In this document: positions 60,152 to 63,136 of the stretch, one piece after another
How positions within the stretch are numbered: the stretch's first letter is position 1
Layout of the letters: every line of letters begins with the position of its first letter
Origin: Nitrosopumilus sp.
GTDB taxonomy: Archaea > Thermoproteota > Nitrososphaeria > Nitrososphaerales > Nitrosopumilaceae
Length of the DNA: 64,000 nucleotides
Reading direction: 5' to 3'
NCBI GenBank assembly: GCA_965197525.1
Contig: OZ240211.1
Location: forward strand, 832,001 to 896,000
Translations under genes and position numbers: made by a program
Notes under the pieces: generated by a model
What the model was told of the DNA's origin: nothing
Databases searched by the model: none
Seen by the model: only the letters and a program-made list of their open reading frames with translations

Positions 60152-60691
60152 TTGCAACTAACTGAGGAGAATCATCATATGATAACGTTGCCTGATTTGG
60201 TACAACCTAGAATGAAAGTTGTATTTGTAGGAACAAATCCCGGGACAAAATCAGCACGAATAGGGCATTATTTTGCAGGTAATAGTAATATGTTTTGGAA
60301 ATTATTATATGAATCTAATTTGACAAAAGAACGGCTTACAACGGAACAGGATAACAAGTTAATCACATATGGTCACGGCCTCACAGATGTGATAAAACGA
60401 CCTACGCGTTCTACATCAGAATTACGAAGAGATGATGGAAACGGTGCAAGAGATCGTTTGAATTCCATTATAGAGAAAAACAGACCTAGCATAGTTGCGT
60501 TTGTAGGTAAAACAGGTTTTAGATACTATCTTGACTACAAGGGTAAATCTATCAAGTATGGTATGCAAAAATTCAAGATTGCCGAATCTTCTGTATACCT
60601 CCTCCCATCTACCAGTGGCCAGAGTTTTGCAGACACTAGTTACAAAGAGAAACTATTTTGGTATAAAAAATTAAAAAAAATTATATCATGA
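60152..60691 (+). CDS. Mismatch-specific DNA glycosylase (MUG/TDG, UDG family 2), copy 1
   Basis: VFVGTNPG, GHYFAG..N.FW, GLTDVIKRPT and LPSTSG motifs. Confidence 0.9.
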   Translation: MQLTEENHHMITLPDLVQPRMKVVFVGTNPGTKSARIGHYFAGNSNMFWKLLYESNLTKERLTTEQDNKLITYGHGLTDVIKRPTRSTSELRRDDGNGARDRLNSIIEKNRPSIVAFVGKTGFRYYLDYKGKSIKYGMQKFKIAESSVYLLPSTSGQSFADTSYKEKLFWYKKLKKIIS

Positions 60692-61087
60692 ATTTTCTTG
60701 AAATTAAAAAAAGAATCCCAGTACTGACAAAATACATCACGAGAGTTTATTTGGCTACATCGTTGGTTAATTGCAATGAACAAAATACTAGAACCATCAT
60801 TAGAGTATCAATTGATTTGAAATGACAATTGTTAATGAATAGACAGTATAGGATAATCCAAAATTAAATTCAATAGATTTAGTTAGAGACGCCAACATTG
60901 TTAAAAAATACGATATTTGTGTTTCAGAGATCGCCAAACCAAGTACTAAAATAGATATTAATATTACGACTGCAAAGATGTTCACGAAAAAAAATCAGAT
61001 GCGTGTATAGATACAAATGTTTCAAACGCGGGTTTAGGAATAGTCAACCGTAGAGTTTTTTAAGGACTTGTATGCTAAAATAACAAG

Positions 61088-61567
61088 TTGAATTCACCTG
61101 AAAAACTACTAACTCTGTTTCAGGCAATAGACAAAAAACTCTCCATGAATCAGTTTGATGACAAGTTAGAAATTCAAAAAATCACTTACCTAGCTCAAGA
61201 ATATGGGATTGATTTAGAATATGAATTTGAATGGAATAAACGCGGACCATACTGCAAACAAGTATCAGAGCATGCACATATAATCATAGATTCCAGCAGG
61301 AATATCAGTATTGATAATAACTTGAAAAATGAGAAGGAAAAACTATCACAATTTGTAAAAATAATAAAACCTTACATGGATAACACTGAATGGTTAGAAA
61401 TTGCAGCTTCGCTATTATATTTACGAAAAGACAGCTATGAAAACATGGAATTGAATCAAATAATAGGATACCTTATTGAAGACTTGACGTACGGTTACAA
61501 GAATTTCAATGAGGCGTTGGTTAGAAAAGCAATTTCCGAAATGTCGAAGAAAGGATTTTTGACATAA
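61088..61567 (+). CDS. Hypothetical YwgA/Panacea(DUF4065)-like protein
   Basis: KLEIQKITYLAQ...YEFEW...GPYC and WLEIAASLLYL resemble antitoxin-like HTH domains. Confidence 0.55.
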   Translation: MNSPEKLLTLFQAIDKKLSMNQFDDKLEIQKITYLAQEYGIDLEYEFEWNKRGPYCKQVSEHAHIIIDSSRNISIDNNLKNEKEKLSQFVKIIKPYMDNTEWLEIAASLLYLRKDSYENMELNQIIGYLIEDLTYGYKNFNEALVRKAISEMSKKGFLT

Positions 61568-61603
61568 CGAAAAAATTCTTCGTTAAAATTATCGTGATAT
61601 GTT

Positions 61604-62622
61604 TTGTGGGACAATAAATGGAAAGAACTACTGAAGGATATTTCTACTAATGGTGTACTGGTATCACGAAAAGATTCAACTAGAAACACACAAGAAACTG
61701 TTTCATACAAATTTGAGATAGATGATTCTAGAAACAGATTAATCTCTGATGAATTACGTGGTATTGATATTTTTCAATGTGTTGGGCAATTTTTATGGAT
61801 TACACAAGGAAATTTCAATGTAGAAGCAATAAAGTATTACCAGCCGATCTCGGACAAATTTTCATCAGATGGGGTCAAAATGATAGGTGCATACGGTCCA
61901 AGATTATTTGGTATCCAACATCTTAATCAGATAGAGCACGTCATAGATACATTAACAGAAGATCCTGGAAAAGAAGGGCTGTAGCATCAATTTATTTGCC
62001 ACAATTTGACCAACACGAATTTGAAAATGAAGAAGTGCCGTGTACTCTGAATCTACAATATCTCATCCGTGATGACAAATTACAGGCAGTAACTTACATG
62101 AGAAGTCAAGATGCATTTAATGTGTTACCATATGATTTTTTCATATTCACAATGCTACAAGAATATCTTCTAAACAGATTAAAACCAGAACACCCAGAAT
62201 TCCAACTTGGAAGATATAATCATTATAGTGGAAGCTTCCATGTTTATCAGAAAGATCTAGATAAGATTAACAAAATCACAGACAATCAATCTTCAAAAAA
62301 CTTTACTATGAAGAAGATGCCATCAAAAAATGTAGAACTTCGTTTACGCGCATTGAATATATTTGAATCAATAGTAAGAACGGCAACATTAGCTAAAGGC
62401 AAGTATAAGATAAAATTTGATTTTGATGCAATGGTAGACGTGATGAATGACTCGTTGAAAGATGAATACTGGAGACAATTAGGATTGATATTATTATCAT
62501 ATAGTGCAATACAGACAGAAGACAGAGAAAGGCATAAACAAATATTTGATTTGTTAGATCCAGAATACAAATATTTTGTAAAACTCCATATTGACAAACA
62601 TCGTCTTACTGGATTCTATTAG
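61604..62622 (+). pseudogene. Thymidylate-synthase-superfamily protein (cytidylate hydroxymethylase/methylase-like) split by a single-base frameshift at about 61969
   Basis: ORFs 61604..61984 and 61996..62622 join as ...GAYGPRL...EDPGK-RRAVASIYLPQFD...VPCT...MRSQD...LPYD...GSFHVY if one A is added to GGAAAAGAAGG. Confidence 0.82.
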
Positions 62623-63136
62623 AATATCTTCTAAGATTTCTATACCATCCTAGTTTTTCATCATAACTTGTGTCCGCATAACTCTGTCCACTAGTAGATG
62701 GAAGAAGATAGATCCTAACATCCTTGTAATAATGTTGAAATCCATATTCTAAAGATGAATAATAGTTATTGGAATAAATCCTAAAACTCATTTTCCCAAC
62801 AAAAGCAAGAATTTTTGGAGATATCATATTCAAAGTACGGTTTAATCGTTGTATGTTTTGGGCCGTGTATTGTTTTTTAATAACAGTTATGTTACTAGTA
62901 GGCTGTTTTATAATATCAGTCAGTCCATAGCAGTAGTTTAACATATAATCATCCTCTTCTGTTTTTAACTGTCGATCTGTCAACTTTGATTCGTAAAGTA
63001 ATCTCCAAAACACGTTAGAGTGACCGGCAAAATAATGGCCTATTTTTGAAGATTTGGTACCCGGACTTGTACCTACAAATAGAATTTGTAGACCTTTTTT
63101 GATTATATCAGGAAGCGGTCGTAAAATTTCTGCCAA
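62606..63136 (-). CDS. MUG/TDG-family DNA glycosylase, copy 2 (GTSPG variant)
   Basis: LFVGTSPG, GHYFAG..N.FW, GLTDIIKQPT and LPSTSG motifs; convergent with and overlapping the TS-like gene. Confidence 0.88.
   Translation of the reverse strand: MAEILRPLPDIIKKGLQILFVGTSPGTKSSKIGHYFAGHSNVFWRLLYESKLTDRQLKTEEDDYMLNYCYGLTDIIKQPTSNITVIKKQYTAQNIQRLNRTLNMISPKILAFVGKMSFRIYSNNYYSSLEYGFQHYYKDVRIYLLPSTSGQSYADTSYDEKLGWYRNLRRYSNRIQ

Follow-up and report, generated by a model that had tools for sequence, protein, structure and literature searches.

A decayed mobile cassette of Nitrosopumilus combining a MilA-type cytidylate hydroxymethylase homologue, an antitoxin-type protein and two MUG paralogues: a possible conflict module

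The window analysed here is a stretch of 64,000 nucleotides from the genome of a Nitrosopumilus sp. (assembly GCA_965197525.1, contig OZ240211.1, a single contig of 2.21 Mb, positions 832,001 to 896,000 of the forward strand), and the relatives found by sequence bear the names of Nitrosopumilus or Nitrosarchaeum metagenome-assembled genomes. Towards its right end lies an accessory island (59650..63890) that carries a small cassette organised around a homologue of thymidylate synthase (TS). Comparison with same-genus genomes identifies this 4.2-kb AT-rich segment as an insertion, and its extent, about 59650-63890, was set on the basis that the genes flanking it adjoin in those genomes. The two flanks (2100-3660 and 7890-8620 of locus L001) adjoin in G102, G127, G257, G268, G159 and others, and only 127 bp separate them in G102. 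The GC fraction is 0.25-0.34 inside the island versus 0.38-0.44 in the adjacent DNA. A first description of this stretch, made from the letters alone and called here the sequence-only reading, had placed in an AT-rich island a MUG glycosylase gene (+), a YwgA-like gene (+), a TS-like gene (+) and a second MUG gene (-). This island and all of these open reading frames (ORFs) were recovered in that order, and the assignments as MUG and TS-like are upheld by profile matches to both Pfam and NCBIfam. The four genes are therefore all present; what had been missed is a fifth one, a DNPH1-like pseudogene lying between the first MUG gene and the YwgA-like gene.

The conservation of this layout was assessed on loci gathered by protein look-ups, whole-genome searches and scans of genome and metagenome collections, and scored by four family profiles. 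A locus was considered distinct when its TS-like protein was at most 97% identical to the others, and the denominators given below are the loci with room to judge. The succession of a MUG gene, an optional hydrolase gene, the YwgA-like gene, the TS-like gene and a convergent MUG gene is kept in 28 distinct Nitrosopumilaceae loci, so that the conserved co-occurrence on which the sequence-only reading depended does exist. The YwgA-like gene is found directly 5' of the TS-like gene and on the same strand in 24/24 loci, a MUG gene lies directly downstream of the TS-like gene in 21/23, another one upstream in 17/19, and the hydrolase gene is present in 10/19. Among 401 genomes sampled from the class, the related ones of which are not independent, the close TS family was detected in 6, all of them within the 8 that possess the close MUG family. 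The co-occurrence of these genes is far above chance and their linkage is plain. The cassette is nevertheless sporadic, having been found in 8 of these 401 genomes, this one included, while one genome (G239) contains two copies. Since at least two loci (L020 and L032) lack the upstream MUG and keep the Ser-bearing downstream MUG, the core of the cassette consists of the YwgA-like gene, the TS-like gene and the downstream MUG gene. A literature search covering YwgA, hydroxymethylases with glycosylases and defence, and gene neighbourhood retrieved no description of such a cassette, and the earlier statement that no named system with this layout was known holds for the papers and PADLOC models searched.

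The TS-like gene (61604..62622, + strand), hereafter the writer gene, encodes a homologue of the MilA-type cytidylate C5-hydroxymethylases and is frameshifted, Pfam Thymidylat_synt being matched by both halves. It is divided into two ORFs, 61604-61984 and 61996-62622, with coding in frame 2 up to 61969 and in frame 1 after it. An alignment of the DNA with three intact orthologues places a 1-nt deletion in the A-run 61969-61972 (+ strand), between the DPG and KRRAV codons, where the window reads GGAAAAGAAGG and locus L002 reads GGAAAGAGAAGG. At the deletion, the contigs of runs X1 and X2 (depth 24-29) and of run X3 (second sample, depth 8.5) carry the same sequence as the window, without any indel; they stand for two samples of one study, and one of these samples may be the assembly's own source. 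On this evidence, an assembly error was rejected because the contigs of the two samples agree, and on the same ground the deletion is considered real in the population. Programmed frameshifting was rejected as well: all orthologues are encoded in a single frame, and the lesion is a plain 1-nt deletion at a run of four A.

The catalytic motifs have survived in the two halves. VPC (within EEVPC), MRSQD, LPYD and KRRAV can all be read in the window, which bears out the earlier observation that the protein keeps the catalytic PC and RSxD and has LPYD in place of the LPFN of thymidylate synthases. The relationship with MilA was established on an intact orthologue, P0003 from locus L002, which is 72% identical to the window copy. 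Among solved proteins, phmmer matches it to MilA at 2.2e-29 and to the best thymidylate synthase at 1.9e-12, and all scores obtained with the NCBIfam thymidylate synthase models are far below their cut-offs. Its predicted structure, a model with a predicted local distance difference test (pLDDT) value of 85, was compared with MilA (5b6d, 5jp9, 5jnh) by Foldseek, giving template-modelling (TM) scores of 0.78-0.79 on the query and 0.83-0.84 on the target over 333-339 columns, versus 0.54-0.57 for E. coli ThyA. The superposition on MilA includes the C-terminal helical domain, and the TS core followed by this helical domain corresponds to the full-length MilA architecture.

The residues that govern substrate choice were counted in an alignment of 69 family members. 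The catalytic Cys is invariant (69/69). The position of E. coli N177 is occupied by Asp in 69/69, that of MilA Ala176 (position 167) by Ser in 68/69, that of MilA Lys133 (position 126) by Arg in 68/69, and that of E. coli L143 by Glu in 65/69. According to published work, Asp at the N177 position accompanies cytosine substrates and an A176S/K133R double mutation switches MilA from cytidine monophosphate (CMP) to deoxycytidine monophosphate (dCMP) (PMC5175136), whereas an acidic residue at the L143 position accompanies non-methyl products (PMC13326640). The meaning given earlier to this Asp, namely that it selects cytidylate where Asn selects deoxyuridine monophosphate (dUMP), agrees with both PMC5175136 and PMC13326640. 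At the D169 position, Asp is kept in the window copy and in 54/69 relatives, while Asn is found in 15/69; D169N is the mark of the recently found flavin-dependent 5-hydroxy-dCMP synthases (PMC13326640). Since the window copy retains D169, the writer is predicted from its residues to be a dCMP 5-hydroxymethylase, converting dCMP into 5-hydroxymethyl-dCMP (hmdCMP). The carriers of D169N include P0029, P0030, P0036, P0044 and P0049. Because of these 15 members, the archaeal TS-like family may contain both hydroxymethylating and hydroxylating enzymes.

Three groups of characterised enzymes provide a useful comparison. MilA/MilB of mildiomycin and BcmA/BcmB of bacimethrin are pairs formed by a CMP 5-hydroxymethylase and an N-glycosidase, and MilA is the closest solved relative of the writer by both sequence and fold. 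The two share Asp at N177, an acidic residue at L143, the C-terminal helical domain and, in about half of the loci, a Nuc_deoxyrib_tr neighbour. Unlike MilA, however, the cassette writer has the deoxy signature Ser/Arg in place of Ala176/Lys133, and Gln or His in place of Glu68; unlike the MilA/MilB loci, its surroundings comprise a DNPH1-like hydrolase, added MUGs and an antitoxin-like gene, without antibiotic tailoring genes and in an archaeal host. The writer resembles the dCMP hydroxymethylase gp42 of phage T4 by its predicted dCMP substrate and by the set formed of Cys, Asp, Ser, Arg and the acidic L143 residue. T4 gp42 (246 aa) differs in size from the MilA-type writer of about 335 aa, in which the general-base Glu is replaced, and the T4 pathway includes a dCTPase, a deoxynucleoside monophosphate (dNMP) kinase and a glucosyltransferase that the cassette, not found on viral contigs, does not encode. 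The D169N signature of the RB69 gp48 type of 5-hydroxy-dCMP synthase is absent from the window writer.

The gene most strictly associated with the writer (61088..61567, + strand) lies directly 5' of it and encodes a protein of 159 aa with an antitoxin-type fold, similar to YwgA, Panacea and the C-terminal part of DarG. No Pfam family was matched by this protein or by ten distant relatives, and PF13274 was undetected for the YwgA-like protein at E values up to 1. DarG profiles are matched at 6.9e-7 in NCBIfam (positions 172-279 of 338) and 1.3e-8 in PADLOC, with coverage limited to the C-terminal part of the profile, positions 168-291. The AlphaFold2 model (pLDDT 90) gives one real match in the PDB, 7yk3_B, which is the DarG C-terminal domain bound to DarT (Foldseek probability 1.0, TM 0.59). 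In the ESM Atlas, a fold search with the same model returned a cluster named SocA/Panacea at TM 0.82 and a DarG cluster at TM 0.72. A feature search reached 0.81 for a cluster in which 13% of the members are PF13274, a profile search collected 1773 clusters of similar small proteins, and one homologue carries the JGI annotation YwgA. The earlier YwgA/Panacea-like call thus stands at the level of the fold, through the two ESM Atlas clusters, 7yk3_B, the DarG profiles and the JGI name, and fails at the level of PF13274, which gives no match. The ESM Atlas search also pointed to a cluster of 610-aa type I specificity (HsdS) proteins, part of which matches the YwgA-like fold with TM 0.72; it may represent a fusion of this fold to a restriction-modification component.

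The arrangement of this gene is reminiscent of the DarTG and PanA-PanT systems, with which it shares the DarG C-terminal toxin-binding and Panacea-type fold and a conserved two-gene order. The gap between the YwgA-like and writer genes is 35-45 nt in the five loci measured, the Panacea criterion being at most 100 nt. Unlike these systems, the cassette gives no match to DarT, a macrodomain or PF13274, and its partner is a TS-fold enzyme. None of the island ORFs encodes a macrodomain or resembles DarT, and the Panacea paper examined makes no mention of a TS-fold partner. A four-chain complex prediction with the YwgA-like protein as partner of the writer scored 0.38 versus 0.00 for the best of three controls, including one in which swapping only the TS-like chain brought the score to 0.00; the runs share at least 39% of their contacts and the partner pLDDT is at least 80. 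The mark used for such predictions is reached by 58/80 solved complexes and by 2/110 mismatched pairs, and at 0.60 or under it is reached by only 7 of the 80 solved complexes together with both passing mismatches. These models give a hint that the writer could be the partner of the YwgA-like protein. Two distant YwgA-like members that were looked up are found directly 5' of HD proteins (HD plus HD_assoc_2), sometimes overlapping them (L024:294-2391; L073 and L074:4001-5906), and this position suggests that the superfamily is paired generally with nucleotide-metabolising enzymes. Such YwfO-type pairs resemble the cassette in that a protein of about 160 aa directly precedes a nucleotide-metabolising enzyme (L024, L073, L074); they differ in that the enzyme is an HD-domain phosphohydrolase and not a TS-fold hydroxymethylase, and neither pair has a published function.

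The two MUG paralogues that surround these genes are about 50% identical to each other. MUG1 (60179..60691, + strand), of family 2 (MUG/TDG), possesses the canonical GTNPG motif. Its ORF is open from a TTG at 60152 (60152-60691), with a probable start at the ATG 60179 that matches the start of its orthologues. It was assigned by Pfam UDG, the uracil-DNA glycosylase (UDG) family (9.7e-18), and by NCBIfam MUG (2.1e-30), with E. coli MUG (1.2e-21) and human TDG (1e-20) as best solved relatives. Its Asn is aligned to N18 of MUG and N140 of TDG, and motif 2 (P-S-x-S) reads LPSTSGQS. The upstream paralogue has GTNPG in 11/11 loci, and this motif is invariant across 13 sequences in a separate alignment. 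MUG2 (62606..63136, - strand) is convergent with the writer gene, their 3' ends overlapping by 17 nt. It belongs to the same family (Pfam UDG 9e-15; NCBIfam MUG 3.8e-24; E. coli MUG and human TDG again as best solved relatives) and retains the fold and motif 2, whereas GTSPG replaces the GINPG of MUG/TDG, so that Ser stands at the position of N18 and N140. The downstream paralogue in 20 loci has GTSPG in 18, GTRPG in 1 and GTNPG in 1, in a family that is well conserved (mean column identity 72%). The description of two MUG glycosylases is thus correct as to family for both and needs correction for MUG2, which is devoid of the catalytic Asn. Members of the MUG/TDG family remove 5-hydroxymethyluracil (hmU), 5-formylcytosine (5fC) and 5-carboxylcytosine (5caC) from DNA; MUG and TDG enzymes are not known to excise 5-hydroxymethylcytosine (hmC) itself. 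A close MUG homologue (294 bits) without any TS-like match was found in a same-genus genome (G303:C1:396532-397050) and may be the solo survivor of a cassette.

The fifth gene is a pseudogene (approximately 60742..60992, + strand) of a DNPH1-like 2'-deoxynucleoside 5'-phosphate N-hydrolase (Nuc_deoxyrib_tr), located between MUG1 and the YwgA-like gene. Intact relatives have a Nuc_deoxyrib_tr gene of 130 aa at the same place, between MUG1 and the 159-aa gene. The remnant is 48% identical by tblastn to the intact gene of L002 over residues 28-89 and matches positions 43-89 of the 130 in the hydrolase hidden Markov model; its translation contains several in-frame stops, its N-terminal piece is in another frame, and the catalytic-Glu motif GIGIE has become KIDIN. 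The small island ORFs, including one on the minus strand at 60800-60985, were counted as chance ORFs over this pseudogene. Intact orthologues match PF05014 at 7e-13 to 2e-10 and keep the catalytic Glu. Among solved proteins they come closest to DNPH1 (6.7e-8), which carries the annotation 5-hydroxymethyl-dUMP N-hydrolase, and MilB is absent from their matches to solved relatives at E 0.01.

The genomic surroundings of the cassette vary. Elsewhere in its genome, the host encodes ThyX, by which it makes dTMP, as well as one other UDG and two C5 DNA methyltransferases, and because ThyX and a separate UDG are available the cassette cannot be regarded as a housekeeping locus. The host ThyX (G000:C1:97151-98518, outside the window) gives two Thy1 matches in one frame of 565 aa and is apparently a tandem-domain protein. 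In L002:1611-6192, the cassette is bordered by three transposase genes and by a restriction endonuclease of HaeIII type of which only the C-terminal half is present; in L068:2938-5115, it is accompanied by a solo Cas1, an HNH nuclease and a TrwB-like ATPase, a set that could represent a casposon or else an integrated conjugative element. Further neighbours are an SMC/AAA_15 ATPase with a metallophosphatase, an integrase-core fragment (weak rve_3 match), and TraG/TrwB and AAA_15 proteins. Several other copies are damaged: in L017:6321-6838 a frameshift divides the downstream MUG, L021:9723-11498 has no downstream MUG and about 1.2 kb interrupting its YwgA-like gene, and the cassette of L069 is rearranged around an integrase fragment.

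More distant writer homologues occur in other settings. In G209, from another family of the order, a TS-like gene 31-34% identical belongs to a cluster (L022:7910-17884) with a dCTP-deaminase/dUTPase-like gene, a deoxynucleoside kinase, an O-methyltransferase and a different UDG-superfamily gene, directly followed by a complete type I restriction-modification system (HsdS, HsdM, HsdR); this cluster resembles a more complete pathway for modified nucleotides, placed in a defence island. The freshwater and marine metagenome contigs L053-L067 encode a 269-aa TS homologue, about 32% identical, after a thymidylate/dNMP-kinase-like gene (for example L053:4456-5708). These co-directional gene arrays contain no MUG or YwgA-like gene and look like the usual phage arrangement for hydroxymethyl-pyrimidines.

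Both ends of the island are non-coding. On the left, an AT-rich flank (59809..59973) contains a nested hairpin in which 33-nt inverted repeat arms, 82% complementary, enclose a perfect 40-nt AT-only palindrome (59893-59932); this palindrome matches only its own opposite strand and has no other copies in the genome. On the right (63137..63890) are short sequences that recur elsewhere in the genome: the stretches 63235-63311 and 63605-63703 show 74-90% identity to several other sites of G000, near 0.455, 1.111, 1.216, 1.222 and 1.369 Mb, the two being in the same order near 1.111 Mb, and they are possibly what is left of a small repeated element. A search for repeats at the island termini gave short weak pairs only, with no convincing terminal repeat or target-site duplication, an Rfam scan of 59400-64000, which includes both island flanks, gave no match, and a tRNA scan of 18 kb found none.

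Considered together, these genes are tentatively interpreted, with a confidence somewhat short of even, as a decayed mobile cassette of three to five genes that would act on 5-substituted cytosine nucleotides as a conflict module of toxin-antitoxin or antiviral type. Two arguments place this interpretation ahead of the others. The writer, the dNMP hydrolase and the glycosylases all concern 5-substituted pyrimidines, and an antitoxin fold is found in the product of the gene that shows the strictest linkage to the writer. Precedents exist: the Brig1 glycosylase is an antiviral defence (PMC11078745), PMC13092281 describes a validated defence system with a TS domain, and the antitoxins of the Panacea group act against many toxins that are unrelated to one another (PMC8832971). 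In such a module, the YwgA-like antitoxin-type protein would restrain the writer; once released, the writer would supply hydroxymethyl-cytosine nucleotides to replicating DNA; the MUG paralogues would convert the modified bases, or the hmU resulting from their deamination, to abasic sites; and the hydrolase would clear leaked modified nucleotide from the pool. The identities of the genes, their signature residues, the conserved layout, the mobility and the two breaks are established; from these we infer the substrate and product of the writer, its binding by the antitoxin-like protein, the targets of the glycosylases and the biological role. A more novel version, in which an antitoxin-gated writer marks the DNA made during infection with hmC and the MUG paralogues then create abasic sites, resulting in immunity or addiction, is rather unlikely; if true, the system makes the substrate for its own restriction. 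In a more remote variant, the hydrolase would release the free base and the glycosylases would put it into DNA through base exchange. As for the writer-plus-excision module put forward in the sequence-only reading, its parts and its conserved layout stand, whereas the copy described there is decayed and its writer broken. With a frameshift in the writer gene and a hydrolase gene reduced to a pseudogene, 2/5 genes are dead; the module is thus probably inactive in this genome, and the island most likely represents a relic.

Several observations weigh against a conflict module. The general-base Glu (E58 of E. coli TS, E60 of T4 dCMP hydroxymethylase, E68 of MilA) is Gln in the window copy, and across the 69 members Gln (43 members) and His (21) prevail at this position over Glu (4) and Thr (1). 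As cited in PMC13326640 (its reference 59), Glu mutants of TS are slow and trap the covalent intermediate. As the Glu is replaced by Gln or His, the writer may perhaps be a slow enzyme or one with another activity. The Ser of the core MUG argues against poor leaving groups, hmC among them, being excised efficiently. No kinase or dCTPase gene was found in the cassette and, in the absence of a dNMP kinase, the entry of hmdCMP into DNA would depend on host kinases. Decay has struck different genes in different loci (the writer here, MUG2 in L017, the YwgA-like gene in L021), so that no clear toxin signature emerges. PADLOC contains no credible model for the TS-like gene and none for either MUG, a weak SspH match (E 0.006 over 50 residues) having been disregarded, and a scan of IMG/VR with the TS-family alignment retrieved no relative and hence no tie to a known virus. 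The complex prediction between the writer and the YwgA-like protein amounts to weak support and is counted on this side as well. Finally, the writer, the pool sanitiser and the parts for repair of hmU:G pairs would suit a non-toxic pathway of writing and repair equally well.

This last possibility is the best placed of the alternatives and is nonetheless rather doubtful. It supposes that the cell, or a mobile element, introduces some hmC in its own DNA, for instance to blunt restriction, and encodes the means to clean up after it: the hydrolase would remove the hydroxymethyl-dUMP arising from deaminated hmdCMP, the MUGs would repair hmU:G pairs, and the YwgA-like protein would be a regulator. 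DNPH1 together with TDG or SMUG1 forms the mammalian clean-up set for hmU, and the best solved relatives found here are precisely DNPH1 for the hydrolase, and MUG and TDG for the glycosylases. As in mammals, an N-hydrolase and TDG/MUG glycosylases are thus combined, here encoded together; unlike in mammals, they are tied to a writer acting at the level of nucleotides, not to a TET oxidase, and to an antitoxin-like protein, and one MUG has lost its Asn. The L022 cluster, with its dCTP-deaminase-like gene, deoxynucleoside kinase and UDG, has the composition expected of a full pathway for modified deoxynucleoside triphosphates. Moreover, all known dCMP hydroxymethylases of this signature serve DNA modification (PMC5175136, PMC13326640), and a TS homologue expressed alone produced trace amounts of modified C in E. 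coli DNA (PMC13326640). The close cassette is, however, without the kinase or dCTPase of such a pathway, its hydrolase is missing from about half of the loci, and no relative was found on the known viral contigs of IMG/VR. Cellular writing and repair also leaves the most strictly linked partner, of antitoxin type (24/24), unexplained and has to rely on a core glycosylase without the catalytic Asn and, as the conflict module does, on a writer devoid of its general base.

Alternatively, the cassette could be directed against viruses that carry modified cytosine, the MUGs excising viral bases as Brig1 does while the hydrolase, and perhaps the TS-like enzyme, would destroy or divert the viral nucleotide pool. 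Brig1 provides the precedent of a UDG-superfamily antiviral effector (PMC11078745). It is comparable to the MUGs in being a glycosylase of this superfamily in a variable, defence-type context, and it differs in being a family 4-like, solo enzyme aimed at a phage-made base, where the cassette has family-2 paralogues, several genes and its own writer. The closest solved relative of the hydrolase does cleave a hydroxymethyl-pyrimidine nucleotide, and the location of the cassette in islands with mobile and restriction-modification neighbours is in line with defence. Such a function is all the same quite improbable: the best-conserved enzyme of the cassette is a hydroxymethylase of biosynthetic type, its writer signature intact, for which it offers no clear use, the searches made brought up no virus of Nitrosopumilus carrying modified cytosine, and hmC itself is not known to be a base that MUG/TDG enzymes excise.

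A small-molecule pathway of MilA/MilB or BcmA/BcmB type, in which the TS-like enzyme and the N-hydrolase would release free 5-hydroxymethylcytosine as a metabolite or as the precursor of an antimetabolite, appears very improbable. The resemblance of the writer to MilA over its full length, and the presence in 10/19 loci of an adjoining Nuc_deoxyrib_tr hydrolase, the family of MilB, are what recommends it. The Ser and Arg found in place of MilA Ala176 and Lys133 predict deoxy substrates instead (PMC5175136), and the hydrolase, which is optional, has DNPH1 as best match and not MilB, absent at E 0.01; no tailoring or export genes accompany the cassette, and two DNA glycosylases would be left without a role. 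The remaining idea, that of a divergent housekeeping thymidylate synthase beside uracil or mismatch repair genes, has on its side the Pfam and NCBIfam family names (thymidylate synthase, MUG) and virtually no likelihood, being already contradicted by the Asp that replaces the dUMP-selecting Asn in 69/69, by scores under the NCBIfam thymidylate synthase cut-offs, by the ThyX and other UDG of the host, by an occurrence in 8/401 genomes, by the insertion observed here and by a gene that is broken in an otherwise 99% complete genome.

The component families, and the general idea of defences that modify nucleotides or employ glycosylases, are already known. The cassette unites in one tightly conserved whole four types that have each been well studied separately, namely a cytidylate hydroxymethylase, a DNPH1-type sanitiser, TDG/MUG glycosylases and a Panacea/DarG-type fold. 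It also provides two natural enzyme variants, a TS-fold enzyme lacking its general-base Glu and a MUG in which Ser replaces the catalytic Asn. Little is known about defence and mobile elements in the ammonia-oxidising archaea, an abundant group. If the cassette is a conflict system, it would contribute a mechanism in which a cell writes a modified base and then excises it; if it serves writing and repair, it would constitute a cellular hmC pathway in archaea.

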